Under the pieces are notes generated by a model. That model ran no database searches. It saw only the letters and a program-made list of their open reading frames with translations, and was not told where the DNA came from. Positions 5,262 to 51,000 of a stretch of DNA of 55,101 nucleotides are shown here, one piece after another (position 1 is the stretch's first letter; every line of letters starts with the position of its first letter). The stretch comes from a virus. Taxonomy: Duplodnaviria > Caudoviricetes. Location of the stretch: the IMG/VR virus record IMGVR_UViG_3300029448_000053, positions 1 to 55,101 of that record, one strand, 5' to 3'. The position numbers were made by a program, and so were the translations under genes.

Positions 5262-6176
5262 TCAAACGACTCCGGTGATTTTGAAAATGCGGTTGTTTTT
5301 GCCAGCGGCGGCTCCATCCTGCATTTCGTGAATCACTGAACCCATGTAGGAGGTGAGTAGCCAAGAGTAGCCAACACCTTCAATTCGAGTAAGTTCTGTT
5401 TCGGTAAATCCGTCGCCGTTGTATTGGAAAAACTCAGCAGTTTGCGAGCCACCAATCAAAAGGAGAGCGTCGCTACCGATTGCTCCGGTTGCACCGAAGT
5501 CTCGTGTGTAGTAGACCGACAAGTTAATCATAGTGTTCAAACGCTCTTGGAGAGATTGAAGAACATTCGTGTAAAGACGAGTATTCAACATTTGAGCACG
5601 GCATGATGCTGGGAGGATAAGAGCGAGTGGTTCGTTACCGGAAACACGAGCGTTCTCGAAGATTTTGTCCATAGCGTTAAGAACGTCAAGTTCTTCGTCA
5701 GCGGCACCAGCACCCCAAACAACACCGCCAGTTGTAGCGGCTGTTTGACCTGCACCTGCGTGCAACTTAGCGAGGATGTGGTTGTCGATAAGGTCAGCAC
5801 GGGCTTGAACGATAGCCATTTGCTGTCGGTTCATGTTTTCCCATGTTTCGCCACGGAGTAGTGTAGAGTCGAGGAAAATACATCGACCTTGACCCTTTTC
5901 AAGTTTGACGGAGTAGTTTGCTGTTCCGATTTTGGTCGGGTCAACAACTGCGTTGTCATCGAGAGGGTAGGTAAATGTTCCTGTTGCTCCGGTATACCAA
6001 GTAAAGGTCAACCACGGGACAGTTCGGACACCAATAACTTGAGTTCCGACAGCAATCGTAGTTGATTGAAGTTGGATAAAGTCTCGGAGGGTTTGTTCAA
6101 GCACTGCGTCGCCTTTACCGAATGGTCCGGTAGCGGCTGTAACTTCGAGTAATTCTTCTAATGATTTGTTAGCCAT
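5262..6176 (-). CDS. Major capsid protein (HK97 fold)
   Basis: ~304 aa; canonical order portal-protease-cement-MCP; MAIVQARADLIDNHIL spine-helix-like segment; alternative start at 6191. Confidence 0.8.
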   Translation of the reverse strand: MANKSLEELLEVTAATGPFGKGDAVLEQTLRDFIQLQSTTIAVGTQVIGVRTVPWLTFTWYTGATGTFTYPLDDNAVVDPTKIGTANYSVKLEKGQGRCIFLDSTLLRGETWENMNRQQMAIVQARADLIDNHILAKLHAGAGQTAATTGGVVWGAGAADEELDVLNAMDKIFENARVSGNEPLALILPASCRAQMLNTRLYTNVLQSLQERLNTMINLSVYYTRDFGATGAIGSDALLLIGGSQTAEFFQYNGDGFTETELTRIEGVGYSWLLTSYMGSVIHEMQDGAAAGKNNRIFKITGVV

Positions 6177-6218
6177 ATTATTCACTTCCATTTATTTTTA
6201 TCATGCTTTCAGTCAGCC

Positions 6219-6644
6219 TCAAATGTGGGCACCTCGACAGAAGACAGGAATTAGGTCGCCAGCGGCAGGGGTAATGCCATCCTCACCGAAGTAATATCCG
6301 ACAAAGGTTGCGCTGTTTGCGGCGTTTGTATGACAGAATCCATCGGACTCTGCGGTTTGGGAGGTGTATAGTGCTTCTCCAGTCTTCATAACACCGCCGC
6401 CAACACACTTAATGTATTGAACGCCGGTCAAAGGTAGGATTGAAACAGTTCCGGTTCCAGCCGCTTCGAGAGTTCCTGCGGCATCACGGCTTGATTCATC
6501 AATTGTTACACCGATTGGTTTGTCTGTAACGCTCGCAGTTATCATAATACCTGCGGCGTTGTATTTCACGAGCAATCCGCCGGATGCGAATGTGTTCTGT
6601 ATGTCTTTTGCGTTAACTGGGGTTTGTCCACTGTATGCTACCAT
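6219..6644 (-). CDS. Capsid cement/decoration protein
   Basis: 141 aa, Gly/Ala-rich, between protease and MCP; KPIGVT and AAGDLIPV motifs typical of cement proteins. Confidence 0.6.
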   Translation of the reverse strand: MVAYSGQTPVNAKDIQNTFASGGLLVKYNAAGIMITASVTDKPIGVTIDESSRDAAGTLEAAGTGTVSILPLTGVQYIKCVGGGVMKTGEALYTSQTAESDGFCHTNAANSATFVGYYFGEDGITPAAGDLIPVFCRGAHI

Positions 6645-6658
6645 TTTTCATCACCTAT

Positions 6659-8329
6659 TTATTGGAGTTCCTCATATAACTTAGCCTTTTGCATATCGGC
6701 TCCAGCCATAACAGTATTGTAGGCGTTTGCCCAACTGTTGTAGCATCGTGCATAGAGGGATTCGGAGGATTCGACAACTTTACCGTTTAGGTAGTTGGCG
6801 ATAACTGGTTCGGAGGATTCTTCGGAAGCCTCGACTGGTTCGGAGGTTGCTGGAGTTGCAGGTGCCATTTCAACAACTGCTTCTTCAACTGGCGCAGGTC
6901 GGGAGGATTCCCACGATGCGATAACGGAGTTCAATGTTTCTGTTGAGAAGTCGTCATGGCCTTTAAGTCCCATGTCGGATGCTTTCTTAACAAGAGCGAG
7001 TCTTGATTCTTCGACACGAGCGAGGTCTGCGGCTTCGTATTCTGCGATTTTTGCTTCTCGCAAAACGAGTTCGGCTTGTAGTGCCTCCATGTCGGATGCG
7101 GTTGATTCAATTTGTTCTTCGGTCATATTATTCACCTTCGAGTAATCAGTGCTACTTTCGGGTTGACACTTAAAGGTTTCATTGGCAATCACCTTTTCTA
7201 CGGTTTCTATGTTCGCTTCGGAATAAGCCGGCCTGTGAACAATGGCGAGATGGTCGAACTCAAAGTCATCAGCGAACCACATAGTAGGGCGACCGCCTTC
7301 TTCGTCGGCTTCTATAATCTCGGTAGGGATTCCTGTTCCACCAATAGATACTCCGTATTCGGGTCGCATCCATAGGCCGGATTCAAGAGAAGCAAAGAGT
7401 TCTGTGCGGTGGACTTCGGCCACGTAGCGAACTTCATATCCTTTTTCGGTAACATGATATGATGCTTCGGTAACAATACCTACTGTGGCTTCATCTACTC
7501 CGCCATCCATGTTTCGACGGAACCTGCCCATCTCGGCTTTTGGATGATTAAGTGTTACATCAGCACCAACCATTTTAGCAGTTAAGCGAGATGCGAGTTC
7601 GGGTTTAATTCCCCAATTGTTTTTGTTAATACCACTTGTAAATGCAATACCACTAATTCGCATAATGCTTTTACCGGTGCTCGCTTCGATTCTTGTTTCG
7701 ATACTGTCAATTTCAATTTCACAGGTTACTGCTACTCTTACACATTCACCATCAATAAGTTCTTCTCCGATAGCACATTGTTCATCACAGGATGCAGTCT
7801 TTTTCTTTTTGTCATCATCGTATGCGGCCTCTTCTTTGAAAGAGTGGCCTTGATGTGCGGCCATACATTCTTCTTCGGAATAACCGGCCTCTTGGCAACG
7901 AGTCATATATTCGCCATGCGTTTCATCAGCCGACGGCGTAGGTTCAGCCGCCTCTACTGATTCGCCTTTGCATCCGCATCCACAGCCCATATCACCTGCT
8001 ACGGTATCGTTTGCTTTATCATCATTTGCTTCTACTTTGTTTGTAGACCATTGACGACAGGACCAATAACCAGCGGTTGTTTTGTCTTTCTTTTCCGCAC
8101 AGTTATGGCGGTCTCGGAATGCTTTGCGTCGCTTTGGGTCATCACGTTTAATCTCCATATTCGGGTCTCCGAATCGGACAATGATAACATTACCTTTATT
8201 ATTTTTAACATAGACGGCGAACTTTTTTGCGCCACCCTTTGTTCGGAATGGTTTGTTAAGTGTAACCTTTCGACCTTGATATTCAGCGGCGGAGAATGTC
8301 TCGCCCCAGTCTTCATATTCTTCTTCCAT
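6659..8329 (-). CDS. Prohead protease/scaffold with extra N-terminal domains
   Basis: RISGIAFTSGINKNNW, LNH, YGVSIGG, HLAIVHRPAY protease motifs; acidic coiled-coil C-terminus. Confidence 0.8.
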   Translation of the reverse strand: MEEEYEDWGETFSAAEYQGRKVTLNKPFRTKGGAKKFAVYVKNNKGNVIIVRFGDPNMEIKRDDPKRRKAFRDRHNCAEKKDKTTAGYWSCRQWSTNKVEANDDKANDTVAGDMGCGCGCKGESVEAAEPTPSADETHGEYMTRCQEAGYSEEECMAAHQGHSFKEEAAYDDDKKKKTASCDEQCAIGEELIDGECVRVAVTCEIEIDSIETRIEASTGKSIMRISGIAFTSGINKNNWGIKPELASRLTAKMVGADVTLNHPKAEMGRFRRNMDGGVDEATVGIVTEASYHVTEKGYEVRYVAEVHRTELFASLESGLWMRPEYGVSIGGTGIPTEIIEADEEGGRPTMWFADDFEFDHLAIVHRPAYSEANIETVEKVIANETFKCQPESSTDYSKVNNMTEEQIESTASDMEALQAELVLREAKIAEYEAADLARVEESRLALVKKASDMGLKGHDDFSTETLNSVIASWESSRPAPVEEAVVEMAPATPATSEPVEASEESSEPVIANYLNGKVVESSESLYARCYNSWANAYNTVMAGADMQKAKLYEELQ

Positions 8330-10373: not shown

Positions 10374-11891
10374 TTACGCTCCAAAGCGCACATATTTTCC
10401 ACCGGAACTTCGATTCCGGCTTGGTTTCGTAGGTTTTTTGCCTTTCGACCACCCACCCATGCTTGTCGTTTTAGTTGCCATAGGCATAAAGTCGGAACGC
10501 TTTGGTTTGAATTGGTCTATTGCGTGCGCAAAAGCCATAACTGTATCGTTATGTTTGCCCACATCTATAATCTCACCATTTTTCCATACGTGGTTTTCGA
10601 GTTCGTCAAGAAGTATGCCAATTTTTTTCCGCATATCGGCGGTAGCATACGGGAAAACGATAAGTTCTCGCTCAAACCATACCCTTAACCGGTTCATTAG
10701 CCCCTGTTTAAGTCCTTTATTCGACACTTTAGATGGTCTATAATCAACCATGCCTCCTTTTTGCTCTATGATTGTTTGATACAGTCTTTGAAAACCTACA
10801 TCCTCAGCGGCCACTGCCGCCTTAAAGTGTTTAGCCCATTCGATTATAATATCAGCCTGTCTATCCGGCGCAAAATCATTACGCCTCCACATATCAACAA
10901 AGTGGACATAGCCGTCAGCATCCTGTCGCAACGATATTAAAACGGAGTAGTCTTTACCAATACCATGAGAAGGGTCGAAGCCGAGGATGAAGACGGAACT
11001 ATTGTCGAATTGACTATCGAATCCTCCGTCGGCACTTATGTCTATGTTTTTTCGGATGAGGTGCCTATTGAATACTTGGGCATCATCATCAACGACCTTA
11101 CACAGATACTCTTGAGAGAAGGCGAGGTCGTCATCCATGCTGATTTTTTGTTCCAAGAGAAAAGCGGTGGGTCGGAACTTGGGCCAAAGTGGTGTTAACT
11201 CTACTTCGGGATTAACTCGGTGCTCATCCCAATTGGGGAATGCCGACCATACACCACTTTTCCATACTTGTTTAGCCTTCTCGGATAACATCTCGGTTTG
11301 ATAAAGGTCAGTGTGGGACATTGGCGTGCCGACACAGAACAGTGATGTTTCGGGGTCGAGCATTGGAGTAACTACTTTCTTGAACCACTCTCGCACCGAG
11401 TCCATAGTCATATCCCCCATTTCAGCGAGGACATCATCAAGTGCTACTACGGCAGGGTGCTCTCCACGGATAGCGGAACCTACACCGGTTGCTTGAATCC
11501 AAGCACCGTTGGTAAATTGTATTTTTTGCTTGTTTGATTTACGTTCATTGAGATACTTTCGTAGTTCGGGGTGTCGGCGCATATCAGTCTTAATCTCCTC
11601 AAGACGGTTTGTTGCTTGGCGAATAGATGCGGAAAATAACCACACCTCCATAGGGTTGCCGTTGCGTTCTTCAAACAAACACATGTGAAGTAATTTAACA
11701 CGTAGTGTTGCTGATTTGCTGTGTGAGCGGGGAGCGATAATACAGACACGATGAACTGCCGCGCCTTTACGGTCGCCGTATAATTCCATCCATTCGCCTA
11801 TGTGGTCGGCCCATTCGTATTCGGGGGATAACCATTCATAAAAGTGGCGGATGTCATACTTGGAGCGTTGAAAGTCAAAGTTGGTTATCAT
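10374..11891 (-). CDS. terL: Terminase large subunit
   Basis: Walker A APRSHSKS, Walker B VVALDD, coupling motif VGTP, nuclease LGFDP...DYS and HNDTVMAFA. Confidence 0.93.
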   Translation of the reverse strand: MITNFDFQRSKYDIRHFYEWLSPEYEWADHIGEWMELYGDRKGAAVHRVCIIAPRSHSKSATLRVKLLHMCLFEERNGNPMEVWLFSASIRQATNRLEEIKTDMRRHPELRKYLNERKSNKQKIQFTNGAWIQATGVGSAIRGEHPAVVALDDVLAEMGDMTMDSVREWFKKVVTPMLDPETSLFCVGTPMSHTDLYQTEMLSEKAKQVWKSGVWSAFPNWDEHRVNPEVELTPLWPKFRPTAFLLEQKISMDDDLAFSQEYLCKVVDDDAQVFNRHLIRKNIDISADGGFDSQFDNSSVFILGFDPSHGIGKDYSVLISLRQDADGYVHFVDMWRRNDFAPDRQADIIIEWAKHFKAAVAAEDVGFQRLYQTIIEQKGGMVDYRPSKVSNKGLKQGLMNRLRVWFERELIVFPYATADMRKKIGILLDELENHVWKNGEIIDVGKHNDTVMAFAHAIDQFKPKRSDFMPMATKTTSMGGWSKGKKPTKPSRNRSSGGKYVRFGA

Positions 11892-12036: not shown

Positions 12037-13410
12037 TCACTCATGTGATACTGGGGCAAAGAGAGAGCCAATGTAGCCTTCTTTGTAATCAATTAAGTAT
12101 GCGGCGAGACCGGCTTTGCTTGTAGTATAACCTGCTCTCGCATGGTATCGGTCATGTCCCGCTAAGGATGGCATCTGTATAATGAGGCATCCGTCTTTTT
12201 CGTGCATCTGTTGATGGTGAAGGTGGCCGTGGAACCAAACCTTATGCTCGTTTGTTCCCCATAGTTCACGGGCTTCGACGGACATAATAGAACCAAGACT
12301 GCTACCTCTACTCATACTGTCTCCATGAGTAAAACCAAGTAGTGTGTTTCCGTATTCGATATAACGGCGGTTGTTGGCAGTGATGGTTATTTCAACATCA
12401 TTGATACCTTCGTATGCGGCGGATAAATACATCATTAGTGCGAGGGATGTATGGCGGTCGTGATTACCTGCCATCATTACTATTTCAACAGGAGCGACTT
12501 GTCGCAGTAGGTCAATATGCTCACGGGCTAATTTGCATCCGGTGATTAGGATTTCAGCAGGGGTAGCACACATATCCTGTGGTGTCCCACGGGTTGTTTG
12601 CCCAGCATCGTTATCTACATGGAACCAGTCGGAACCTGCACCTACATATATTTTTTCGGGCTTAGTTGAGATACGGGACACGAGTGTTTCGGTCTTTTCC
12701 ATCAGTCGCTTACGTGCCTCATCAAAGTTATAGGTTTCACCGACTTCATCGGCCCATCCATATTTGCCCCAATGAAAATCAGTAGGACATACAACGAGAG
12801 CGTATGAGTTCTTTGGCTTTGTTAATTTAATTTTGGGGACAGACTTAGGTGCTTTGGAGAGTGTTGTCATGTGGACTACATAGTCATCCATGAGTGTTCT
12901 CCAATTCTTCGAGTCCTCGGACATCCGCTTATGCTGTTCTTTGGCGAGGTCAGCCGCGAGAGTATGACGACGCGAGATAATGATTTCATCAATCAATCCG
13001 TCTTGGTTGTCAACCTCCATCAATTGTTCTCCAGTTACAGGAATTGCGGAACGAGTAATTTTATGGATGCGCTTGTATTGCTTAAAGTAGGACTCGGCAA
13101 TACCGTGAGTGTGGCACAGTTGCCCCGTAGACATACCATTGGACCAGTCCGATATAATTTGCCGGTGCTTTGCCCCCGACACGGTGAGTGCACCAGTGGA
13201 TAGATACGTGGTGTAGTTGTCGGTCTTTTCCTCGTATGTGTATGTCCCTGTCTTTGTTGGCGAGGCCACATTGTCCTGTTGTCGGATAAGTCGCATCTCC
13301 CAACCTTTGACGGAGAGGAACGGGTAATGCTCGTTTAGGAATCGAGCAAATGCGAGTCGGCTTGAGTGGTCTTTTTGGCTATGCTCGGATAGTATGGTGT
13401 CTATGTCCAT
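12037..13410 (-). CDS. Calcineurin-like metallophosphoesterase with N-terminal HTH-like region
   Basis: DFHWG, GSDWFH, GNHD, THGD, GHLH motifs; start moved to ATG 13410, ~30 nt behind the promoter-like TTCATAAGGTGGCG. Confidence 0.85.
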   Translation of the reverse strand: MDIDTILSEHSQKDHSSRLAFARFLNEHYPFLSVKGWEMRLIRQQDNVASPTKTGTYTYEEKTDNYTTYLSTGALTVSGAKHRQIISDWSNGMSTGQLCHTHGIAESYFKQYKRIHKITRSAIPVTGEQLMEVDNQDGLIDEIIISRRHTLAADLAKEQHKRMSEDSKNWRTLMDDYVVHMTTLSKAPKSVPKIKLTKPKNSYALVVCPTDFHWGKYGWADEVGETYNFDEARKRLMEKTETLVSRISTKPEKIYVGAGSDWFHVDNDAGQTTRGTPQDMCATPAEILITGCKLAREHIDLLRQVAPVEIVMMAGNHDRHTSLALMMYLSAAYEGINDVEITITANNRRYIEYGNTLLGFTHGDSMSRGSSLGSIMSVEARELWGTNEHKVWFHGHLHHQQMHEKDGCLIIQMPSLAGHDRYHARAGYTTSKAGLAAYLIDYKEGYIGSLFAPVSHE

Positions 13411-13629
13411 TAAAATGTATGGTATGGTCGCCACCTTATGAATGTTTCTAAAAAAAATTACCCAGAAAAACGTATGGTGCTGGGCTGTCCCTATATACCT
13501 TATAGGTCGTGTTTTTGGCGGCTCATCGAACAAGGCGTGGCCTCAAAGAGAGAGGGCCACCTCCACCCGTCGAAACGGGTGAAGGGGCGGCATCGGTTAA
13601 ACCGTATTACTGTATCACTGTGTTATTGA

Positions 13630-14817: not shown

Positions 14818-14930
14818 GATTCTCCGAGGGAGTGGTAGTATATCAACGGTGGGGTGTGGCTCCCCCGCCCTCCGAAGAAGGCGAGGGGGCGGCTCATAGG
14901 CTCTCAGTGGCCCGATTGTTTGAGTGATGC

Positions 14931-15113
14931 TCACTCAAAAGAGGGTAGGTTTCCGTTCCGGTCTTGTTGTCGGTCAAGGTAGACCTGCAACACATCGTCA
15001 AAGAGAGAGGGGCGTTCCATCATGGACATATCCCTTACCCGTGTGTCTTCCAACAAGCAAATAATGTTCCTCAACCTGCGTATTTCATTCATCAGTTCTT
15101 CGTTTGTTTTCAT
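14931..15113 (-). CDS. Hypothetical small protein (MKTNEELMNE...)
   Basis: GGAGG SD; TTTATATAT box near 15200-15208 on the minus strand. Confidence 0.55.
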   Translation of the reverse strand: MKTNEELMNEIRRLRNIICLLEDTRVRDMSMMERPSLFDDVLQVYLDRQQDRNGNLPSFE

Positions 15114-15347
15114 GTTTTTTCCTCCATTGTTTTTACGGTTCGCCTGTTTTCTGTTCTTGTCCACTGACTTTCCCGTATGTGCATACTAACACCTATATCA
15201 TATATAAACGGTTCCCGAATAATGCTCATACCTATTGTTGAGTGGATGGGGGGTTGCCCCACGCACGGCCCCGCCGCCGGTATAAGACTGTTAATAGAAA
15301 ACGCGCTTGGGGAGAGATACTCGGCGTTTAGCCTCTGTAATATACTA

Positions 15348-15420
15348 TATAGTCTTAGGAAGGAACCGTGAACGGGAGGGGGCTTGGGAGAGAGATTTTG
15401 ACTTCTCCAAAAGTCCAAAC
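15348..15420 (+). repeat. Tripartite ~72-bp element, copy B
   Basis: TATAGTCTTA-N29-GGAGAGAGATTTT...AAAAGTCCAAAC. Confidence 0.7.
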
Positions 15421-15784
15421 TTTTCATGCTGTCGGCTCATGGTCTGTCGAATGTGTCCGAGGTTATGAACCCTTTGTTTTCTTGCTTTTTTGGCTGGAAT
15501 TGAACTTTTTTCTGTTTTTTTTTCTGTCTGTTTTTTTCTGTTTTTCTTTCGGTCTTGAATCGTTGCCCCTGATGTCCTAAACGGGGCACTGCGAGACCGG
15601 TGGCCCCTCCGCTCTCAAATGTGCCTTTTTTGGGCTGTTTTGGGCTTTGTCCGGCCAATGACAGGCCGACGATTTAGGGCACCCTAAATCTCTTTTTTTG
15701 TCTTCTATTCGATGGACTGCGAGCCTGTTTTTTGCAGAATGCCACTTGGATAAGTTGATATACTTGAGCGGGAATCGGTAATTG

Positions 15785-16925
15785 CTTCTCCAACCGGAGG
15801 GAGCCGAAGTGAATAATTTGCCCCACACTCATTCCCGATAGTTTAGGGATTCAATGAACGGGGAGTTTCGGAGGGTCATTAAAGTGGCCGTCGAAGAACC
15901 AAGAACAATACAGCGAACACATCATGTTCCCTTCAAAAACTGAAAACATCCAGAAAAAGGAGGGATTGCGTAGCCGTGCACTGCCTCTCTTGAGAGGTGG
16001 GGTAACGGACTCTTGAAGCCGGCTTTTGAGACACCCTCTCAAATATATTCAACGGCATGGGCGTGAGTCATAGGACAAACACGAACATTTGATAGACGGG
16101 TCGGGAACACCTTGACCCTCATGGGAGTTGCCTTCGACAGAAGAGGCACTGAAAGCATGAATTAGTGGATGGTTGAGAAGCATCACTTCTCGACAGGGGC
16201 GACCCGACTCCATCCAATAATCACCGCTTACAACTCTATGACAGTGGACTTAAAACCCCACTTGAGAGCATATATGACAAACAAGACCGCAATGAACTTA
16301 TGGGAACATATATCCGAAAGGAGGCTGTTTAAAGGTGTGCGCATCAGATTCGGGTGTTTCCCGACTGATGACACTATTTAGTAGCGAATTATTGAATTAC
16401 CGATGTAACCGGCGACGGGTGCATCAAACCATTAGATTTTGAGTCTCCACAGGCGGAGGTTCGCATATACCCACCGTGGTTATGCCTTACAGGAACTTTA
16501 TTTTTCAAGACGGCGTGGCTATGCGGTAGCAATACCGGCGGAGTGTCTATGATGCGAGGGAGGCGTGAACTTTTTTGAATAGGTGAGTCGGTCCGGTTGT
16601 ATAGCCGGCTCACTGAATTATCACGGCTCGGATTCATGCTCCAACATACACTACAATACACGGACATGATGAAAGGCAATCCTCCCGAATAATCTTCTAA
16701 TCCTGTGAAAAACGGCGCTTGAGGTGCTCCGCCAATGACGGCCCCAATCACAGTCCTCGCCCACATACGGGCAGAGCGTGGGATTATCTACGGCCTAAAC
16801 CGGACCACGCAGTATGAAAATGGAGCGGAGACTCTACCGCTACCGAACTCTCTCCCTCAAAGAAAGAGAGTGCTTGAAAGAGAGCAAAGAAAAGAGAGGC
16901 GCGACTTGTAGGCAAAGAGTCAAAA
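15785..16925 (+). ncRNA. Candidate large structured non-coding RNA (~1.1 kb), family unassigned
   Basis: No credible ORF; TTGATATA box at 15755-15762; many local hairpins with G-U pairs and GNRA loops plus nested long-range helices; ends approximate. Confidence 0.65.
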
Positions 16926-16944
16926 AAAACGGAGGAAAAAACAA

Positions 16945-19644
16945 ATGTATGAAAATGCAATGAACACAGATAGTGGTTTAGGCATGATTTTTGCTATGCT
17001 ATGGGTATTCCTACTCATGGGCGCAGTAATGACGGCCTTCATCACCCAACGATTAGAAGAAACAATGCGAATGCGTGTTGGACTCGAAATAGAAGTTCTA
17101 CGGAACGACCATACCGAGAATGCACCCAACCACTCAATTGCGACTTGGCTTGACATGAAAGCGGCCGCCGAAGGCGACGCCTACAATCAAGCGTATGAAA
17201 AGACACGAAAGAAGCGTGTCAGCATGTATCGAAAGACTCGTGCGAAGCGGCGAGAGGCAATACATAAAGCCCTGCCCCATTCATACTACAATAGACGTTT
17301 TAGAGTTCGTGATGAGTCGTGGTCTCAAGGCCGCACTGCACCACATACCAAAGTCATACCCGATGGTTCACTATCGAGTGGTGGCTTTGAAGTCGTGTCG
17401 CACCCTTTAACAGATGGTGCACATCATGGTTGGATTGCCACACTTGGTAGACTACTACGACACATAACTCGTATTGACCGCTCATGTGGGCTTCATGTCC
17501 ACATTGGCCTAAGAGACCCCGACGCTAATTTTGGCGACGGCGGTCAACTTACAATGACCGATGCAAAATCAATTGCTGGTCGAGTTGCTTGGGCCTATGC
17601 TTACTTCACCGATGCTTTCAACCAGATTGTATCACCGAGTAGACACTCCGGTCAATACTGCCAACGGTCCTACCATATGCTTCGGACTCACCCGAACCCA
17701 ACAAACCACACTACACGCCGACGAGACACTCATGTGATGGATAACCCATCACAGGAAGCCTACATACTTGATGGGACACATGAATACGAACAACTGTATG
17801 ACAATGACCCAAGTGAAGGATATGTAATCTACCGAGTTGAAAAACTTGAAGGGCAGACCTTGTGGCATAAAATGTATGACAACGCACGGAGTCATGGTCG
17901 TTATTACCATCTCAATGTGTGCAGTCTCCTTGACAGGCCCTTTGGCACTGTCGAGTTCCGTCAACATCAAGGAACATCAAACCCAGTGAAAATGAGTAAC
18001 TGGGTCGACTTATGCTATGAGTTTGTATTGCGGTGCGCCAGTGTCGAAAACTTTAATGGAATACAGGCATACTCACAGGACCTCAAAGGACTGTGGGCAT
18101 TCCTTGACTATGCGGAGGATGACCCAGTGGTTGACTATTATACCAAGCGTGCATATGTTCTAAATGGAGGCAACTTCATACGGGACTGCGACAATTGCGG
18201 TAGTAATACCTGTGTGCATTACGAGTGTGTAACAAAACTTGACAGCGACATTTCCGATGACGCCAAAAGATTCTTTGCCAACTCTCGTGATTGGTCTTGT
18301 TATGACTGCGGTAGTAGTAATTACCTTAGTGAGATTAACACTGAATATGAAACTGCTCACTGTGAATACTGCGACAATGAAGTGTCAATACACTGTTCCG
18401 GTGCAATTGCATCACTCGCCCTCGGCCTCTTTGTAGCCGCACCACTCGTGGGTGCAGTTGCACTGGTAGTCGGATGCGGTATAGGTGCAATCCATGTTGG
18501 TGCCAAGAAGTTCCAATCAAAGAAGAACTTCAAGCGTTTGTTCAATGACCTCGCAGTGCGTGGTGGACAAGCGTCTGGTTTTGCGTGGCAAAAGTCCAAA
18601 GGTGGCGAGACATCCGAACTGTGGTATATCAAATCGCCCACTCCCTCGACTCATCTCAAGAAGCGTGTCGATGACCTTGTAAAAGGCGACACTATTTGGA
18701 TAATGGGACATACTCGATTTGCCACACACGGTGAAAACAATTCCGACAATGCACACCCGCACTGGAGTCCAGACGGACACATAACACTTATTCACAACGG
18801 TGTTGTAGGTAATTATGACAAGGTGTGGAAAACCCTCGGCCTCAAACCGACGGGTCCAGTAGACAGCCAAGCAGTTGCCGCCGCTCTCGAAGTTGGTGGT
18901 ATCGAAAAGGTTGTTGAACTGTGCGTGGGCAATATGTCATTGATTTGGTCGGACAACCGAGACCCGAAAGGGACACTCAAGTTCTGGACAAACGGTGGCA
19001 ACCCACTATGTGCTGGTAGACTACATCATCCAAACAAAGGTCCACTCGTCATAGCATCGACATTACCAATCCTCAAGCAGTCTCAAAAGGGCTTGAAAAC
19101 ACACTGGTCGTGCACTATCGGAACTGAATACACAGTTCACCCCGATGGTTCAATCGAAAAGCGTGATATTGAAGGAAGTGAGGATAGTGTCGGTGTTGGC
19201 ATGTATAACTGGCGAACATATGCGAGCCTATACGGTGGTAAGTCAAAGTCCAACAAGACTCGGACTATTACAGTCAACGCACCAACGGGTAAAGCCGATG
19301 GTGTGGCTGATAATTGCACACTACCCGATGTATCGGACAGTTACGAATACGATGACATGGTGCTCAACGATGTTCTAAATGACGTGTGGGCACAGATGAG
19401 CATAGATGGTTGGATTCCAATTGACGAATACCACGGTTACGACACACAGACACATGTTGGCGTGCGGCCCGATGGAACATCCTACAAACTACCAAATTAC
19501 TACGGTGGTAAGGCTATGGACCCAGTTATGGACACAGACCAAATGGTAATGGTATTGCGTGGCGAGTTTGACCCACGCACTACGACCAAAGGATTCAATG
19601 AAGTAGAATCCTACTGGAATGACGTGCAGGAATACTACAACTAA
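16945..19644 (+). CDS. Fusion: TM + amidoligase (COOH-NH2 ligase) + Zn ribbons + TM + class II glutamine amidotransferase
   Basis: VGLEIEV, DGSL...GFEVVS, SCGLHVHIG, RYYHLN, TVEFRQHQGT (amidoligase); CGIG, RGGQASG, GHTRFATHG, NAHPH, HNGVVGNY, VDSQ (GATase II); GGAGG SD. Confidence 0.85.
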   Translation: MYENAMNTDSGLGMIFAMLWVFLLMGAVMTAFITQRLEETMRMRVGLEIEVLRNDHTENAPNHSIATWLDMKAAAEGDAYNQAYEKTRKKRVSMYRKTRAKRREAIHKALPHSYYNRRFRVRDESWSQGRTAPHTKVIPDGSLSSGGFEVVSHPLTDGAHHGWIATLGRLLRHITRIDRSCGLHVHIGLRDPDANFGDGGQLTMTDAKSIAGRVAWAYAYFTDAFNQIVSPSRHSGQYCQRSYHMLRTHPNPTNHTTRRRDTHVMDNPSQEAYILDGTHEYEQLYDNDPSEGYVIYRVEKLEGQTLWHKMYDNARSHGRYYHLNVCSLLDRPFGTVEFRQHQGTSNPVKMSNWVDLCYEFVLRCASVENFNGIQAYSQDLKGLWAFLDYAEDDPVVDYYTKRAYVLNGGNFIRDCDNCGSNTCVHYECVTKLDSDISDDAKRFFANSRDWSCYDCGSSNYLSEINTEYETAHCEYCDNEVSIHCSGAIASLALGLFVAAPLVGAVALVVGCGIGAIHVGAKKFQSKKNFKRLFNDLAVRGGQASGFAWQKSKGGETSELWYIKSPTPSTHLKKRVDDLVKGDTIWIMGHTRFATHGENNSDNAHPHWSPDGHITLIHNGVVGNYDKVWKTLGLKPTGPVDSQAVAAALEVGGIEKVVELCVGNMSLIWSDNRDPKGTLKFWTNGGNPLCAGRLHHPNKGPLVIASTLPILKQSQKGLKTHWSCTIGTEYTVHPDGSIEKRDIEGSEDSVGVGMYNWRTYASLYGGKSKSNKTRTITVNAPTGKADGVADNCTLPDVSDSYEYDDMVLNDVLNDVWAQMSIDGWIPIDEYHGYDTQTHVGVRPDGTSYKLPNYYGGKAMDPVMDTDQMVMVLRGEFDPRTTTKGFNEVESYWNDVQEYYN

Positions 19645-19659
19645 GCATTGTTTCTTTAA

Positions 19660-19833
19660 TCGACCGATGTCCTTAGTGTAATACACACTGAGGTTCCTTA
19701 ACCGATGGTTGAGGTTGCCGCCAATCTTGGGGCTTCGGCCCCTTGAGAGGCCCCCGCTGGCGAGCGGTTTACAAATACGCATTCACATTCCAGCCTTCGG
19801 GCATTCCTATTCCCTCACAGGGAGGTATAACAA
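19660..19833 (+). other. Repeated structured leader, unit 1
   Basis: TTAACCGATGGTTGAGG, GGGGC-TTCG-GCCCC hairpin, CGCTGGCGAGCG, TACAAATACGC, CACAGGGAGGTATAACAAATG. Confidence 0.55.
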
Positions 19834-19935
19834 ATGATGACTGCAAATGAAATTGAAGATGCAATAATCGCTGAACAAGTGGCTATTGATACTGCAAACA
19901 AAGAAGCATGGGCATTGGCTATTAGTCAATGCTAA
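19834..19935 (+). CDS. Mini-ORF, 33 aa (MMTANEIEDAIIAEQVAIDTANKEAWALAISQC)
   Basis: Strong GGAGGT SD; not in the track. Confidence 0.6.
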   Translation: MMTANEIEDAIIAEQVAIDTANKEAWALAISQC

Positions 19936-19954
19936 GTAATTGTAATACAATTAC

Positions 19955-20079
19955 TACTGTTAAACCGATGACTTGGCATACTCCAAGACGGCTGAGGAGC
20001 CACCCCAAATAGATGCGACCGTCGTGGGCGCTATACAAATACACGCATATTCCCCCACAGGAAAGGAGGTAAAACAAAC
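19955..20079 (+). other. Repeated structured leader, unit 2
   Basis: TTAAACCGATG...GACGGCTGAGGAGCCACCC...ATGCG...GCGCTATACAAATACACGC...CACAGGAAAGGAGGTAAAACAAAC. Confidence 0.55.
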
Positions 20080-20415
20080 ATGGATAAATACAAGCAACAA
20101 ATTATGCAACTGTATGCTACGCTACTGCGTGCACACATAGCATTACTTGATGAGATATTGGATGCGGCTACAAGTAAAGCCGCACGCCGATGTGCAACCA
20201 AAGCCAGTGAGCAAATCTGCTCAACTGTGTATCATTTGATACATGACACTGGTGTTATGCCCAACAGCCACATGATACCATATATCGACGACTTGGCCCC
20301 AACAGCCGACGACTTCGATTTCGGTCTCATGCACTCTGTTCGGGATATGGAGAAGCAAGTGTTCCCGTCGACAGTCGGCGGTCGCACTGGCTTCGGCCTA
20401 TACCCAAGCAACTGA
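20080..20415 (+). CDS. Hypothetical protein, 111 aa
   Basis: GGAGGT SD within the shared leader. Confidence 0.65.
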   Translation: MDKYKQQIMQLYATLLRAHIALLDEILDAATSKAARRCATKASEQICSTVYHLIHDTGVMPNSHMIPYIDDLAPTADDFDFGLMHSVRDMEKQVFPSTVGGRTGFGLYPSN

Positions 20416-37088: not shown

Positions 37089-37991
37089 ATGAGACAAGTA
37101 TGGGCTACCAAGCATCGACCTTCTACTCTCGATGATTTTGTCGGACAGGAACACATGATAGATGAGTTCCGCCGTATTGTTTCCGACAACAATGGTATGC
37201 AACACTACATTTTTTATTCTCCCGAAGCGGGAACAGGCAAAACCTCTCTCGCTCATATACTGGCTAATCAACTTGGCTACACCATTCACATGTATAATGC
37301 GTCGTCTAAAAGACAGCGTGGTATTGATTTCATTGAAGACGAGATAGGGCCGATGGCTCGGCTCGGTCAATGGGAAACAATTTTCTTTTTAGATGAAGCC
37401 GACCAACTTACTGATGCGGCACAGTCGGCACTGAAAGGTGTTATCGAAGGTGCTCAAGGCTACTTCATCCTCACCTGCAACGACTTGACTAAGTTATCGC
37501 CGTGGCTACAATCTCGGTGTCAAGTAAGAACCTTTGAACCCATAGGTGATAGCGAGATGTTTTACCGACTGCACCAAGTAGACGGTAGAGAGGGATTCTT
37601 TACAAACAACGATGACCTTGACAAAATCATAGGTGCCAACAAAGGCGACTTACGAAACGCTATCAATACCCTTCAAGCATACCACACTATGCCGGAGGAG
37701 ACCCGACAACAATTTTTACTCTCAATATCCGAACCCGAAGTCGACGTGCCTAAAATCCTCTCGCTTTGTATCAAAGAGAAGCAGGTAGAAGAGGCAGTGA
37801 AGTGCATGGGCACTCCGGCCAACCTGCGAAAGACAATAGACGCCGTGTTCAATTACGGCATAAACTCCCCCGCTAAACCCGAAAGCAAATTGCTCTTGGT
37901 GGATGCCGCTACACAGGCCCAAAGGGACTTGTTGAGTGGTGTCGAGGCCCACTATGTTATGTGGGACTTTTGCCGGAGACTGGCTGAATAG
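37089..37991 (+). CDS. rfcS: Replication factor C small subunit (clamp loader)
   Basis: WATKHRPSTLDDFVGQ, GTGKTS, NASS, LDEADQLT.AAQSAL, LQSRC, GDLRNAINTLQ. Confidence 0.92.
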   Translation: MRQVWATKHRPSTLDDFVGQEHMIDEFRRIVSDNNGMQHYIFYSPEAGTGKTSLAHILANQLGYTIHMYNASSKRQRGIDFIEDEIGPMARLGQWETIFFLDEADQLTDAAQSALKGVIEGAQGYFILTCNDLTKLSPWLQSRCQVRTFEPIGDSEMFYRLHQVDGREGFFTNNDDLDKIIGANKGDLRNAINTLQAYHTMPEETRQQFLLSISEPEVDVPKILSLCIKEKQVEEAVKCMGTPANLRKTIDAVFNYGINSPAKPESKLLLVDAATQAQRDLLSGVEAHYVMWDFCRRLAE

Positions 37992-41887: not shown

Positions 41888-44110
41888 ATGATAGTAACAC
41901 AGGTTGGCGGTAGAGATATACGCATACGGAGTAGAGACCCCGAAACACTTGAGCGTCAAGACCTAAAGGTCATGGCATACCCCTATTGTTTTTCAAACAA
42001 TGTAGGTGATACCTACGGACTGGTTAAAATCCAAGAAGGATTCGAGGGACTATACGGTCAAAAGTTAAACAAGGTGTATTTTCGCACCGAGTATGACCGA
42101 CGCTTATGGGCTAAAGGAAAAGAGACATGGGAGGCGAATGTAACATTCCCCAACCAAGTGTTGATTGACCGACTCGAAAAGGGCGAAGACCCCATCCCGA
42201 ACTACCAGCACCGTATTTGGTATCTCGATGGTGAATGGAAAACCACCTCCGGTGAAATAACCATGTTGTCGGTGCAGGACTCCTACACAGGTAGACTTTA
42301 TTCTTGGGTTCATCACCCCGACATAAAGGCCGGCGTCTACAAATCTCTCGAAGAATATGATTATGATACTCCAATTAAGGCGTTTGCTAATGAACGTCAA
42401 TTGCTCGCTGATTTTGCCGCACATATGGCAAAACAAGACCCCGATATTATAGCCGGTTGGTATGTGGTTGACGCCGACATTAAACAAATATGCGACCGTA
42501 TGAGAGCAGTGGGATTAGACCCAAAGAGTCTATCCCCATACAACCGACATGACTTCAAATACAACTGGAGCGATAAGCATTGGTCCCAACCGATTGCAGG
42601 TAGGTTATGTTTTGATTTGATGATTGGATTTAAAACATTATGGACTCTAAAGAACGGACAATTAGCGAGTCAAAAATTAGATGATATTGCTTGGCATGTG
42701 CTACAAGAGCGCAAAGTAGAGTTGCCCGACGGACACGACACATACTACTCCGACCCCGTAAAGTATCTCGATTACAACCGACAGGATGTGAGGCTACTAC
42801 CTCGGCTTGATGAAGCAGTGAATGCAACAGGCTACTATACTTCTATGCAACATGTGGTTCAATGTCAACTCGGCATTACTCCTCTCATCACCGCTATGAG
42901 CACGAGCCTATTCCTCCAAGACAATGAGTTTGACTTACGCATTCCCGACTCACCTCAATTTGAGAAGAAGGAGTATGCAGGGGCCGACATTCAAGAACCG
43001 GAGCCGGACCGTTATGAGAACATGGCTATCATGGATATTAAGGCCATGTATCACAGTAATGTAAAATTACATCGGATATGCTGGACCAACCTTAGTGAAG
43101 ACGGGGTGGATTGCGGCAACGGTATCAAGTTCACTCAAAGAGAAGGCTTACTGGGCCGCACTATGGATAAATTAACAATCAAACGTAATGAATACAAGGC
43201 TTTGATGAAGGAGGCTCGTGCCACTGGTGATGAAATCGCCTACAAGAAGTGGGATGGAGCGCAATTTGCTACGAAGTCTATGGTCGCATCCCTCTATGGG
43301 ATATGTGGCGATTCTAAATACGGCATGTATCACCCCGATATAGCCGCCGCTATCACATTCACCTCTCGCCAAACGCTGTTCCGATTACGGGATGAATGCA
43401 ACGAGCGAGGTTATCCTGTTCGATACGGACACACTGATTCAATTTTCTGTGAAGTGCCCTCTCCCGAAGAAGGCATGAAGTTGGTAATTGAAATCAACAA
43501 GTCTATGGCACCTATCGAGACCGAGTTCGAGAAGTGGTGTGAGTCTATGGTTCTCAAGGCTAAGAATCGCTATGCCGGTAAAGTTACATGGACTGATGGC
43601 GAATACCATGAGCCGGACTACTACTACAAGGGACTTGAACTAATACAGGCTCGAATGCCAAAGGCTATGAAATCCGCTATGGACTCCACTCTCCGTGCTA
43701 TTCTTGACGGAAAATCACGGGATGAAGTGGATGAGGACTTGAGTCAATTGATAAGCAAAGGTTTGGCCGGAGAACTTGGTGAGGACTTGTTGATGGTTGG
43801 TAAATTAAAGAAGCGATTGAGTGAATACAAGGTCTTGTCCGGCGCATCGGCAGGTGCATATTGGGCTAAGAAAACCCTCAATAAGAATTACAAAGTCAAT
43901 GAATCATTTTTGACTGCTGTGGATATTAAGGGCCAACATATAGCCTTTGATGACATACAGGATTTGGTGGGGACTACCGAGATTGATTGGTCGGAGATGA
44001 CCGAGAAGTTCATTGTCAATAAGGCATCGAGTATCTATGACCTTGTAGGATGGTCCACTATTGAATTAAACAACGCTCATCGAGGATTGGGTGCTGTTCA
44101 GTGGGTATAA
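41888..44110 (+). CDS. polB: Family B DNA polymerase
   Basis: Exonuclease YLDGE, KLDDIA, YNRQD; polymerase DIKAMYHS, KSMVASLYG, YGHTDS, KNRYAG. Confidence 0.93.
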   Translation: MIVTQVGGRDIRIRSRDPETLERQDLKVMAYPYCFSNNVGDTYGLVKIQEGFEGLYGQKLNKVYFRTEYDRRLWAKGKETWEANVTFPNQVLIDRLEKGEDPIPNYQHRIWYLDGEWKTTSGEITMLSVQDSYTGRLYSWVHHPDIKAGVYKSLEEYDYDTPIKAFANERQLLADFAAHMAKQDPDIIAGWYVVDADIKQICDRMRAVGLDPKSLSPYNRHDFKYNWSDKHWSQPIAGRLCFDLMIGFKTLWTLKNGQLASQKLDDIAWHVLQERKVELPDGHDTYYSDPVKYLDYNRQDVRLLPRLDEAVNATGYYTSMQHVVQCQLGITPLITAMSTSLFLQDNEFDLRIPDSPQFEKKEYAGADIQEPEPDRYENMAIMDIKAMYHSNVKLHRICWTNLSEDGVDCGNGIKFTQREGLLGRTMDKLTIKRNEYKALMKEARATGDEIAYKKWDGAQFATKSMVASLYGICGDSKYGMYHPDIAAAITFTSRQTLFRLRDECNERGYPVRYGHTDSIFCEVPSPEEGMKLVIEINKSMAPIETEFEKWCESMVLKAKNRYAGKVTWTDGEYHEPDYYYKGLELIQARMPKAMKSAMDSTLRAILDGKSRDEVDEDLSQLISKGLAGELGEDLLMVGKLKKRLSEYKVLSGASAGAYWAKKTLNKNYKVNESFLTAVDIKGQHIAFDDIQDLVGTTEIDWSEMTEKFIVNKASSIYDLVGWSTIELNNAHRGLGAVQWV

Positions 44111-48033: not shown

Positions 48034-51000
48034 TTACTCCGAATAACTGAACGAGTTCGATTGCGATTTACCTGCTACTGAGCGGTTATCGGTAGCAATC
48101 TGTATGTTATGTAACTCGACCGAGGCGTGAGATGCGTTGTCATCACCTTGACCTGCGTTCCGCTCTACTGTTACCTTGATAGTATTGTTTGATACATTAG
48201 CACCGAGCACACTACCACTAAACAAAACGACATTACCACGTTCAATTTGTTCTACCGTTACAGTGTTGGTGTGTGTTGCACCAGTCTCTACACATTCAAC
48301 GCTCACCAGTAGAACTGCACTGCCGGAGGCGGCACCCATACTGGCTCTACCAAATACTCTAATGCTGTTCGATTGAGCGTTGGGTGGGATTCGAGCAGTA
48401 GCAGTGAAGGATGTAGGGGGCGAGACCCAATCTCCGGCACCAGCAAAGACCATACCGTCTTCACCCATGATTGCATCTCCCGATGTAGGGGAGATAAACG
48501 AGTCAATGCCGGATATACCGTTGCCATCTCTCGGAGCCGCCGCCGGTTTTGTTTGACCGAGGACTCCGAATGAACCACCGGTAACACTGTCATTGTTAAA
48601 GTCCATAGTTCCCTTGACACGATTAAGGGTAGTATTGCCTAATGCCGATGACGATAGGGTATGCACTCCGGTTATTGAAGTGCTTAGTCCGTCGGGTCGA
48701 GAGATACGATTTGGATTTGTAATTGGATTGAGTTGAGAACTGCTTGTTTGAGCAGGGCCACCGTCGCCCCAACCACCCCAGTCCTGCCATCCTCCGCCTT
48801 GAGGATTACCTGCGTTATCGCCACCTCGACCACCAGTAGTGCTACCTCCCGATGGAGGAGTCTGTGGTGCTACACTATCACCGCCGCCACCAGTATTACC
48901 TTGACCGGATGACTGAACGCCGCCTCGTGCTACCTTTGGTAGAATATATGAGGTGAAGTTCTTTGCCGCTCTCGACACATCTCTTTCAAGTCCTATTGAT
49001 AGACTCTCACTGTTTCGGCCGTCAATAGACCAATTGATATTACGAATACTTAATTTTTCACTACTCAATCCCATTTGAGCGTCAGTGTATGTCAACGTAG
49101 TTGCTGGCACGAAGTTCCAATCATCGACAATGTGGAGGCGAGGAGCATACCATTCAGCATTCTTGTTCCAGTAATCAGCCTGTCCGAACTTACGAACACC
49201 GAGAGGGAAAATACTATCGGTATTAAATCCAGCAGTGTATGTAACTCCAGCCCAATTATGTGCATTTAGATGAGTGTTGCTACCGCCGCAACGGTTGCGT
49301 AGGAGAGAGGTCAAGTAATCGTAGTTCACTGAAATAACCATTTTTTCATTACCTACTTGGTCGCTCCAATAAGTAGAAGGAATGCCTATCTCATAGAAAC
49401 CATTCGATGAAACGGTAATTGAACTACTGCTTCTTAAGGTGCCGTCAAATCCACCAGTGTTTAAGACGGCCCAATCGTAATCCAATAAGTATATTCGGAA
49501 CAAAGCGAGGTTCGGGTCTTGAAATGCGCCCCATCTGTCGTCAATATCAATTGCTATTCTCAAGTGTCCGTCGGCATTATTCTTTGTTGGGATTCCGCCG
49601 GCTGGTGTTTTCATTGTAGTCTTTGGCATGCCTTGAGGAACATGGACTACCTGCATAGCGTAGGACAGTGAATTAGCACCATACCAATAATAATTTGCCG
49701 AGTATGCGAGAGTGCCCTGCTCGTCAGTATTACTTGGAGTAGCACCATCTCGACCATCAAGTGCATTTTGAATACCACTAAACAAGTTGCCACCCCAAAG
49801 AGAAGCCCAAGCCCATGCTTTATCATCAGTATAGGACCCTGCTAAAGTGCATGTTCGGGGGATTGTTCGAGATTGGTCGGCTACATATCCGTAGCGAGCG
49901 TTGTATAGCATGGTATCGTTGAGTCCGTTGAGAGTATGACTATCGCTGAATCGAATAATCTCGGCTGTAACTGCAAATGGTGCGGCCTTGTTCTTCTCAT
50001 ACTCTTGTTTCGCTACAATCAGTGCTTCATTTTTTGATTGCACCGAATCCACATGAATGATGTCCCAACGAGGGCGAGTTCCAAGCGTAGCCGCCGGATA
50101 ATCAACGAATGATGTTCCGCCGTTGTAGAATAGGCGAACATTGGAGATTTGCCCACCGGATTCGGTATTCAAGTTGGAGACTTTTAGGTTGGTAGTGTTA
50201 AACACGAAACCGTTGCCGTATGTAGGTCGGAATGACGGCTGTGAGTCTCGACCCATGAGCCAAGACATAACCGAGCGAGTTCCGTCAGTGTGTCCTATGC
50301 CACTACCGCTTTGAGTAGAAGAGAATATGTTGGCAATAGTAGTGTTGCGGCAATCATTAACGGAGCCGAATGTATCTACCGACCCTACCTTACGCCAATA
50401 ACCTGCATTGGCTGTCGCACTTTTACCTGCGGCAGTTACTCTAAAGTTATACGGACCACTCCCCCCAACATCGGAGACAACATATCTCGTCTTGTAGTTA
50501 TCAGCCGCGAGGCTTAGTTGAGAATTGTTGACAATTTCAACAATATCACCATTAGCGAGGTTTCCGTCGAGCCGCTCCCCTGCGATATTACCGAGAACTA
50601 TTACTGTTCCGTCGCCTTGAGTGTGGCTTGAGGTTGCGATAATCGAGTTTGTTCCACCAGTCGAAGCGTCGTTTTGAGTATTAGTCATGTTGCCCATCAC
50701 AGGAATAGATGCGAGAGAAGGTATTCCGTAGAGAGATGCTTGGGTCAACCAATTCTGTGTGAGTGAGTCGAGCCATGTAACACGGAACTTGTCGCTTTCA
50801 TTGAAGGTGAGGCTCGCTTCATTCTCAATGAAGCCGTCAACCTGCATCATCAAGCGCATAGGGAATACATTAGCGAGGCCGACATGCACTGTCGCATCCT
50901 CGTAAGCATTTGTTGCGTCTTCATCAATAGGGATGTCAATAAAGGTATGTGCTGAAAACGGCGAGCCTCCGTCTTGAACTAAATACTCAGCGTCATTGAT

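Follow-up and report, generated by a model that had tools for sequence, protein, structure and literature searches.

How can a class II glutamine amidotransferase (GATase) work when the cysteine that should be its first residue lies in the middle of the encoded protein? The question is raised by a gene of an uncultured tailed virus (Caudoviricetes), carried on the IMG/VR viral contig IMGVR_UViG_3300029448_000053, whose 55,101 bases (estimated completeness about 85%) were analysed as a whole and are called the window here. To our knowledge, the glutaminase domain of class II amidotransferases always comes first in the chain, with its first residue as the catalyst. In the window, the open reading frame (ORF) at 16945–19644 on the plus strand encodes 899 amino acids (aa), and the putative Cys1 of its glutaminase domain is, as encoded, residue 511, with no start codon before it. 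From the N-terminus onwards, the protein consists of a transmembrane (TM) helix, an Amidoligase_2 domain, cysteine clusters, a 25-residue hydrophobic segment, a class II glutaminase beginning at Cys511, and a C-terminal domain that matches no known family (Table 1). This fused layout is real and is conserved across a lineage of uncultured marine viruses. On balance, we lean towards the view that the protein is a zymogen-like precursor that cleaves itself between Gly510 and Cys511, and that the products, a ligase fragment anchored in the membrane and a glutaminase whose N-terminal cysteine is free, probably act jointly as a glutamine-dependent amidoligase at the membrane.

An initial annotation, made from the letters of the DNA alone, had noticed a ligase domain behind an N-terminal TM segment, CxxC clusters linking the two halves, and a class II start motif in mid-protein directly after a hydrophobic segment. 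Profile matches, hydropathy and conservation bear out all three. The Pfam profile PF12224 covers the ligase domain over profile positions 3–244 of 245, with an E-value of 2.8e-10 and 40.9 bits against a curated cut-off of 22, and phrog_2443, an 'amidoligase enzyme', matches the same half at 1.5e-14; a search by sequence against solved structures gave no match for it. Conservation was read from a family alignment of 118 sequences, made up of the query (P0001) and 117 of its 118 homologues, the window's own cluster (P0002) being left out. In this alignment, E48, E50, D140, E149, H184, H186, E337, R339 and H341 are at least 90% conserved, and we presume that they have catalytic roles, by reference to the glutamine synthetase-like fold. 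The full-length AlphaFold2 (AF2) model has a mean predicted local distance difference test score (pLDDT) of 83.7 and a predicted template-modelling score (pTM) of 0.56, with the ligase domain mostly above a pLDDT of 90.

The N-terminal TM helix was detected in 108 of the 118 family members. On average, its upstream flank holds 0.17 Lys/Arg, against 4.6 Lys/Arg in the 15 residues downstream, charges that predict an N-terminus outside and a C-terminus inside. P0138 and P0141 have two N-terminal hydrophobic helices rather than one. In the linker, CxxC pairs stand at 415–418, 455–458 and 473–476; C415, C418, C423, C428, C455, C473 and C476 are each conserved in at least 90% of the sequences, and three short strands are modelled at 461–481. 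These clusters presumably bind zinc. Some relatives (P0093, P0097–P0099, P0102–P0106 and P0113) are about 1,080–1,130 aa long with the catalytic Cys at 675–705, that is, with a larger N-terminal half.

Whether the C-terminal half has an N-terminal nucleophile (Ntn) fold at all had been left as a point to check, and the evidence that it does is consistent. Pfam GATase_6 covers residues 585–692 (E-value 1.3e-14), and the alignments with three GATase profiles (phrog_4736, phrog_14519 and phrog_18128) begin with residue 511 at position 2 of the profile, which is the Met-Cys start position. In a phmmer alignment with E. coli GlmS (1xff), the HTR.ATHG and HNG motifs match; NCBIfam gave only sub-threshold matches, to GlmS and PurF. 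The AF2 model is confident from residue 512 onwards, with residues 512–755 mostly above a pLDDT of 90, and a Foldseek search of the PDB returned the glutaminase domains of GFAT-1, GlmS, PurF and ASNS at E-values of 1.6e-12 to 4.5e-8 (template-modelling score 0.71 for 1xff_B). Invariant in all 118 sequences are C511, G512, G514, H517, R539, H589-T590-R591, T594, G596, N618-G619 and D640. We take Arg73, Asn98-Gly99 and Asp123, in GlmS numbering, to be the glutamine-binding and oxyanion residues; D640 is presumably the counterpart of Asp123, being equated with it by a DS/TE motif that lies outside the span of the phmmer alignment. Judged by profiles, motifs and fold, the glutaminase domain looks active and canonical.

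His517 (18493–18495), six residues past the catalytic Cys, is a peculiarity of the fused family, since split relatives mostly have Phe, Ile or Ser near this position. No acceptor (synthase) domain was recognized C-terminal to the glutaminase, and the sole recognizable synthetase-type domain is the N-terminal one. What follows the glutaminase is a linker modelled with low confidence (about 756–799) and then a conserved C-terminal domain, whose signature motif is kept in 14 aligned sequences. Modelled separately (AF2 mean pLDDT 65.6), this domain had no Foldseek match in the PDB at an E-value of 0.001 or below, and a protein atlas gave no usable feature match, only structural rows with template-modelling scores below 0.5.

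At the junction between the two halves, Cys511 is encoded by TGC at 18475–18477 and the codons before it are GTA GTC GGA (Val-Val-Gly), neither stop nor start codons. The segment preceding it is proposed to be both a membrane segment and the end of a pro-segment. A hydrophobic stretch directly precedes the cysteine in all 118 sequences (Kyte–Doolittle maximum at least 1.88), with a median uncharged run of 25 residues and a Pro inside it in 101. The initial annotation had asked whether the TM segment and the Gly-Cys-Gly that follows it are conserved; they are: the stretch, C511 and G512 occur in every sequence, well beyond what chance would give, and G510 occurs in 109. The other residues at position −1 are Ala (5), Asn (2) and Gln (2), and the more distant P0135 and P0136 have Asn there. 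At position −2, 101 sequences have Val and 16 have Ile, and position −3 is Leu, Ile or Val in 105. The flanks are charged asymmetrically, with means of 0.45 Lys/Arg and 3.0 Asp/Glu per 15 residues upstream and of 4.1 Lys/Arg and 0.08 Asp/Glu in the 20 residues after the cysteine. AF2 modelled residues 483–508 at a pLDDT below 50.

Table 1. Positions of the parts of the fused gene and of other features of the window (aa, amino acids; residue numbers refer to the 899-aa protein)
Feature	Position	Strand	Basis or remark
N-terminal transmembrane helix, residues about 12–34	16978..17046	+	AF2 helix 12–39; best 19-residue Kyte–Doolittle mean 2.44
Amidoligase_2 (glutamine-synthetase/GCS2-like ATP-dependent carboxylate-amine ligase), residues 43–360	17071..18024	+	Pfam PF12224
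Cys-rich linker, residues 415–476	18187..18372	+	CxxCx4Cx4C cluster, then zinc-ribbon-like CxxC...CxxC
Second hydrophobic segment, residues 486–510, ending Val-Val-Gly directly before Cys511	18400..18474	+	Best 19-residue Kyte–Doolittle mean 2.6
Candidate scissile bond Gly510–Cys511 (GGA TGC)	18472..18477	+	Codons read directly; cleavage inferred
Class II (Ntn, PurF/GlmS-type) glutamine amidotransferase, residues 511 to about 755	18475..19209	+	PHROG, Pfam, Foldseek
Conserved C-terminal domain, residues about 800–882, motif HGYD...G.RP.G..Y.LP	19342..19590	+	pLDDT 81–97 in full-length model
Shine–Dalgarno-like GGAGG	16931..16935	+	9 nt upstream of ATG at 16945, read from sequence
Metallophosphoesterase-type exonuclease	12037–13533	−	PHROG scan
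phrog_2319 match (function unknown, E-value 1.1e-40), 439 aa	23764–25083	+	Kept downstream of fused gene in 6 of 19 related loci
2,245-aa ORF	48034–54771	−	No PHROG match at E-value ≤ 0.001

The single chain is not peculiar to the window. A word-indexed search returned 118 homologous clusters, most of them 800–950 aa long with both Pfam domains, and the family comprises at least 118 clusters when sequences are grouped at 90% identity and at least 31 when they are grouped at 50%; identity to the query ranges from 32% to 60% in the alignment. When the glutaminase domain was compared with all representatives, the top 31 matches (E-value at most 1.9e-31) all belonged to the fused family, with the cysteine internal in 28 and three fragments lacking it. 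Below these, the query cysteine, wherever it was aligned, paired with residue 2 of standalone proteins (50 rows). Seven shorter relatives were inspected: none has a Met-Cys start, and the four that contain the cysteine retain the hydrophobic segment. Near-identical DNA occurs in sequencing runs from at least 12 further studies, of marine metagenomes; the runs listed include no RNA data set. Contigs of four other runs cover the junction without a break in the frame; two of these runs produced contigs equal in length and may represent a single data set. The sole indel is an in-frame one of 12 nt at 18607, away from the junction. All four are shorter than the window there, by four codons in a loop of the glutaminase domain (residues about 555–558). 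Among 185,579 species genomes the gene was found in only two, both on viral-looking contigs of metagenome-assembled genomes (MAGs), labelled Parvibaculum and Opitutales.

A comparison of 67 related viral loci separates two forms, 19 fused as in the window and 48 non-fused. Among the latter, 45 start with Met- or Val-Cys (the start of the remaining three was not resolved), and in 25 of those 45 an amidoligase match lies just upstream on the same strand. Likewise, 106 of 119 non-family representatives begin with Met-, Val- or Leu-Cys, the other 13 being mostly fragments. A megablast of the gene against GenBank phages gave no match; tblastn against them matched the GATase part only, with none of 151 records covering at least 80% of the query. 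The question of the initial annotation, whether homologues are fused or split, is thus answered for both: members of the family are fused, and distant relatives are split with a Met-Cys start. The fused family thus derives from the phage gene pair already known, whose order it has kept. One of the 13 others, the distant relative P0180 (351 aa, E-value 1.7e-15), begins with a 15-residue hydrophobic leader followed by Val-Gly and then Cys-Gly; either its gene call may be truncated or it may represent a minimal 'leader plus GATase' form.

These data also bear on whether the fusion is an artefact, in which an assembly or sequencing error conceals a stop codon and a Met-Cys start and the locus really holds two genes. 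Two 'complete' gene calls of 470 aa, P0123 and P0125, might be read as split, yet both carry the hydrophobic segment before an internal cysteine. The same open frame is found in the 118 aligned proteins, the 19 viral loci, the two MAG contigs and the contigs of the four other runs, and the codon at −1 specifies Gly, Ala, Asn or Gln throughout and is never a start codon. The initial annotation had named such an error as what would undo its reading; none was found, and we regard the artefact as refuted.

The pair from which the fusion derives is known. Iyer, Abhiman, Burroughs and Aravind (2009) predicted an amidoligase/class II GATase cassette for phiEco32-like (Kuravirus), LUZ24-like and related podoviruses, as cited in the available text of PMC10580990, PMC5498523 and PMC11706807, and the gene table of UFV-P2, in the part available, gives the same amidoligase–GATase order (PMC3890496). 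Like the fusion, the phiEco32/LUZ24 cassette has an Amidoligase_2 followed by a GlmS-like Ntn GATase in the same order and on the same strand; unlike it, the cassette consists of two separate genes, with the GATase starting Met-Cys, whereas the fusion is a single chain. Coliphage SU10 (Kuravirus) has the amidoligase gp086 and, after it, the GATase gp085, which has Cys as its second residue and aligns with query residues 529–729 at 29% identity (E-value 3e-17). Only the fusion has the N-terminal TM helix, the Cys-cluster linker and the hydrophobic segment ending at the catalytic Cys; the SU10 amidoligase, inspected by eye, is without an N-terminal hydrophobic stretch. In plain translation, the annotated first codon of gp085 (676 aa, 5947–7977 of the SU10 locus) reads Ile, hence a non-ATG start, directly before the catalytic Cys, and its C-terminal part has several CxxC pairs that recall the linker clusters of the fused family.

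The SU10 cassette also includes a COOH-NH2 ligase, a RimK-like ATP-grasp protein and a gamma-glutamyl cyclotransferase. In the window, whose contig is about 85% complete, no match to a COOH-NH2 ligase (PF14395), an ATP-grasp or a gamma-glutamyl cyclotransferase was found among the other ORFs scanned, 40 with PHROGs and 10 with Pfam (75 ORFs of at least 100 aa were listed). As no other cassette gene occurs among them, the two domains are probably a self-contained unit. For the split pair, cell-wall modification for superinfection exclusion, secondary-metabolite synthesis and nitrogen metabolism have been proposed, and in the available text of the sources all of these go back to the 2009 prediction, without experiment (PMC10580990, PMC5498523, PMC11706807). 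The fused form is a variant of this known phage module. For the fused, membrane-tethered, internal-Cys form we found no description in the full-text literature, a search that covered neither Iyer et al. (2009), which may treat fusions, nor supplements.

In class II glutaminases, the general base is the alpha-amine of Cys1, which has to be free. The available text of PMC9140057 likewise makes a free alpha-amine of Cys1 a requirement of class II GATase chemistry. The chain would therefore have to be cut at Gly510–Cys511. The initial annotation had put this as a choice, that the protein must be cut or that its domain is repurposed, and the logic holds: the Ntn fold is genuine, the catalytic set is invariant, the cysteine is internal throughout the family and there is no hidden start. 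We propose that the phage pair 'amidoligase then class II GATase' became fused through the Cys-rich linker and the hydrophobic segment into what would in effect be a two-enzyme polyprotein. Cys511 would then attack the carbonyl of Gly510 in an intramolecular N-to-S acyl shift and free its own amine, as in the usual maturation of Ntn precursors and in the removal of short PurF-type propeptides. Of the two products, a fragment of about 510 residues (the first TM helix, the ligase, the Cys clusters and a C-terminal hydrophobic tail) would stay membrane-bound with its ligase in the cytoplasm, and a fragment of about 389 residues (the glutaminase, with a Lys/Arg-rich loop near its start, and the C-terminal domain) would also lie on the cytoplasmic side. 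In the last and weakest step, the ATP-dependent ligase would attach ammonia or a gamma-glutamyl unit, derived from glutamine, to a carboxylate on a substrate close to the membrane.

Propeptide-bearing members of MEROPS family C44 include PurF of Bacillus subtilis and the large subunit of glutamate synthase, and the propeptides known in this family range in length from a few residues to a few tens. As in these enzymes, the catalytic Cys of the fusion is not the second residue, a pro-segment would need to be removed, and the Ntn fold and catalytic residues are the same. The position of the synthetase partner differs, since it follows the glutaminase in C44 enzymes and precedes it in the fusion. 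So does the scale: the pro-segments are 'a few amino acids' in the available text of PMC9140057, compared with a pro-part of 510 residues that bears an enzyme. The fusion resembles self-processing Ntn precursors in general, as its nucleophile lies behind a pro-segment in one translated chain. Among the Ntn hydrolases that mature into two chains by self-processing are gamma-glutamyltranspeptidase, cephalosporin acylase and glycosylasparaginase, and in several of them Gly precedes the nucleophile. There, the precursor starts as one chain, its own nucleophile makes the cut and a large N-terminal fragment is kept in the mature enzyme, which is the likeness, although for the fusion the cut is only proposed. 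Unlike the fusion, these hydrolases have Thr or Ser as the nucleophile or are members of other Ntn families, the N-terminal fragment lies within the same fold rather than forming a separate ATP-dependent ligase, and no hydrophobic tether ends at the scissile bond. Self-processing as a general principle of Ntn enzymes is described in the available text of PMC9140057.

Two readings other than self-cleavage turn on what happens to the Gly-Cys bond. If the chain stays uncut, the GATase-like domain would have been repurposed around an internal cysteine, as a binding module or as a thiol enzyme with another base, or it would be inactive until acted on. That every member encodes one continuous chain agrees with this, as does the family-specific His517, invariant in the fused proteins and absent near the cysteine in split relatives. 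We nevertheless consider it unlikely, because all the residues that define an active class II glutaminase are invariant across 118 sequences of 32–60% identity, which would be unexpected in a mere binding module, because the chemistry calls for the free alpha-amine (PMC9140057, in the part available), and because His517 lies on the same modelled strand (512–517) and is probably too distant from Cys511 to act as its base. Alternatively, the bond could be cut by a separate protease, either a membrane or cytoplasmic protease of the host or an unrecognized viral one. The site does end a membrane-like segment, where intramembrane and juxtamembrane proteases act, but no protease domain was recognized in the fusion protein or in the 40 PHROG-scanned and 10 Pfam-scanned other ORFs. 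In viruses as divergent as these, a host protease with exact Gly-Cys specificity would also be less parsimonious than Ntn self-processing, and we judge this route quite improbable.

A further reading makes the second segment an internal export signal. The glutaminase half would then be translocated, and either signal peptidase I would release it or Cys511 would be lipidated ahead of cleavage by signal peptidase II. Lipoboxes follow the consensus [LVI][ASTVI][GAS]C, and signal peptidase sites a −3,−1 rule. The query's Val-Val-Gly-Cys meets the lipobox motif, a resemblance that the initial annotation had pointed out, and in the family Leu/Ile/Val at −3 (105 of 118), Val/Ile at −2 (117) and Gly/Ala at −1 (114) lead up to the cysteine. 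Other evidence disfavours export. It begins 486 residues into the chain rather than at the N-terminus, its upstream flank is acidic and poor in Lys/Arg, and the many Lys/Arg and near absence of Asp/Glu after the cysteine oppose translocation. The Asn or Gln at −1 in four of the 118 sequences, and the Asn in P0135 and P0136, are unsuited to signal peptidases I and II alike. A diacylglyceryl-modified thiol cannot act as a nucleophile, so that lipidation would block the very thiol that the conserved catalytic residues serve, and an exported glutaminase could not supply an ATP-dependent ligase in the cytoplasm. Export is therefore, in our estimate, very unlikely.

Several points weigh against self-cleavage as we propose it. 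The cut itself we infer from sequence, and a pro-part of 510 residues with a whole enzyme and membrane segments lacks a characterized precedent among class II GATases in the literature searched. In 114 of 118 sequences, the residues at −3, −2 and −1 (Leu/Ile/Val, Val/Ile, Gly/Ala) also agree with a signal-peptidase site and with a lipobox. The AF2 model neither places residues 483–508 with confidence nor defines the arrangement of the domains, as its low pTM indicates, and the coupling of the two domains, whether the glutaminase acts as ammonia donor or as gamma-glutamyl hydrolase, is suggested by analogy alone. Finally, both hydrophobic segments look 'N-out/C-in' by charge, and two single-pass TM helices of that orientation cannot flank one cytoplasmic domain, here a domain that requires ATP and Cys clusters in the reduced state. 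The second segment must therefore be re-entrant, become a tail anchor after cleavage, or lie outside the membrane. We suggest either a re-entrant helix-break-helix, with which a conserved small-residue–Pro pair agrees, or a C-terminal tail anchor formed by the cut. The acidic upstream and Lys/Arg-rich downstream flanks would fit a ligase and a glutaminase that are both cytoplasmic. The architecture, in sum, is solid and surprising for this enzyme class, whereas cleavage, topology and substrate are what we read from it.

As to function, the most parsimonious proposal, made by analogy, is a glutamine-dependent amidoligase that acts on a membrane-proximal carboxylate; a lipid-linked envelope precursor is our leading guess for the substrate, and gene order alone leads us to guess at expression early in infection. 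The reading of the GATase-like domain as a gamma-glutamyl thiol hydrolase, which the Pfam description also gives, would likewise need a free Cys. This alternative has long been put forward for the split cassette, as cited in the available text of PMC5498523. A functional parallel to our proposal is offered by the MurT/GatD lipid II amidotransferase (PMC3267633, in the part available), in which a glutaminase and an ATP-dependent ligase-type subunit amidate a carboxylate of a membrane-bound envelope precursor. There is no homology, however: GatD is a class I (triad) GATase, MurT is Mur-ligase-like, and the two are separate soluble proteins. Put in full, self-cleavage would make a whole ligase with its membrane anchors the 'propeptide', the cut would arm the glutaminase and turn the junction segment into a tail anchor, and the resulting membrane-bound, glutamine-dependent two-chain amidoligase would amidate a lipid-linked envelope precursor or another membrane-proximal host carboxylate, possibly early in infection. 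With the junction segment turned into a tail anchor by cleavage, the otherwise impossible membrane topology would be resolved. We offer this full version tentatively, as it is rather doubtful that all of its parts hold together. A role in DNA hypermodification was considered, GATases being named among thymidine-hypermodification genes in the available text of PMC13229309, and was set aside: the scanned ORFs yielded no kinase, amino-acid:DNA transferase or dioxygenase, and a membrane anchor is out of keeping with such a role.

The fused gene is the first long gene of a rightward block on the plus strand, ahead of replication genes; this block holds a DNA-binding protein, a clamp loader, a Sak4-like protein, a family B DNA polymerase and an exonuclease. 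On the left side of the window, the PHROG scan identified a large terminase, a portal and a neck-like protein on the minus strand, together with the metallophosphoesterase-type exonuclease listed in Table 1. Of the 19 related fused loci, 18 have a homologue of this exonuclease upstream of the fused gene and on the other strand, so that the position of the fused gene is conserved. The two blocks are separated by about 2 kb with few ORFs (14935–16944), poorly conserved in related loci. The AT skew switches sign near 16000, and a purine-rich tract stands immediately upstream of the fused gene. A scan of 14900–20200 for promoters and terminators gave no more than the shuffled expectation, and neither a tRNA nor an Rfam family was found in the window. 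The 2,245-aa ORF near the right end could encode a giant structural or injected protein.

The core genes are only 21–29% identical to those of known viruses, and judged by them the host could be bacterial or archaeal. The family B polymerase (41888–44110) is closest to those of haloarchaeal tailed viruses and cyanomyoviruses (23–24% identity), the terminase (10374–11891) to those of Firmicutes phages and of the haloarchaeal phiH and PhiCh1 (21–25%), and the clamp loader (37089–37991) to those of T4-like phages of marine bacteria (26–29%). Kinship with the OM43 phages MEP401 and MEP402 was rejected: these are 43-kb podoviruses with a family A polymerase and 34% G+C (PMC10580990, in the part available), and the window, at about 46% G+C, encodes a family B polymerase and a clamp loader. 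Nor was kinship with Vyasavirus supported, a group said to lack a DNA polymerase in the available text of PMC11706807, whereas the window has one.

In summary, the fused viral lineage inverts the order of class II amidotransferases and sets a membrane segment against the catalytic cysteine. Should the protein cleave itself as we propose, its pro-part would be by far the largest known for this class, and it would be a natural case of two enzymes that were fused and are then parted after translation. Self-cleavage would also provide an experimental handle on the phage amidoligase/GATase module, which has been annotated in many phages since 2009, and, given the membrane anchoring of the fused form, the module's substrate can be sought more narrowly, in the cell envelope or the membrane.

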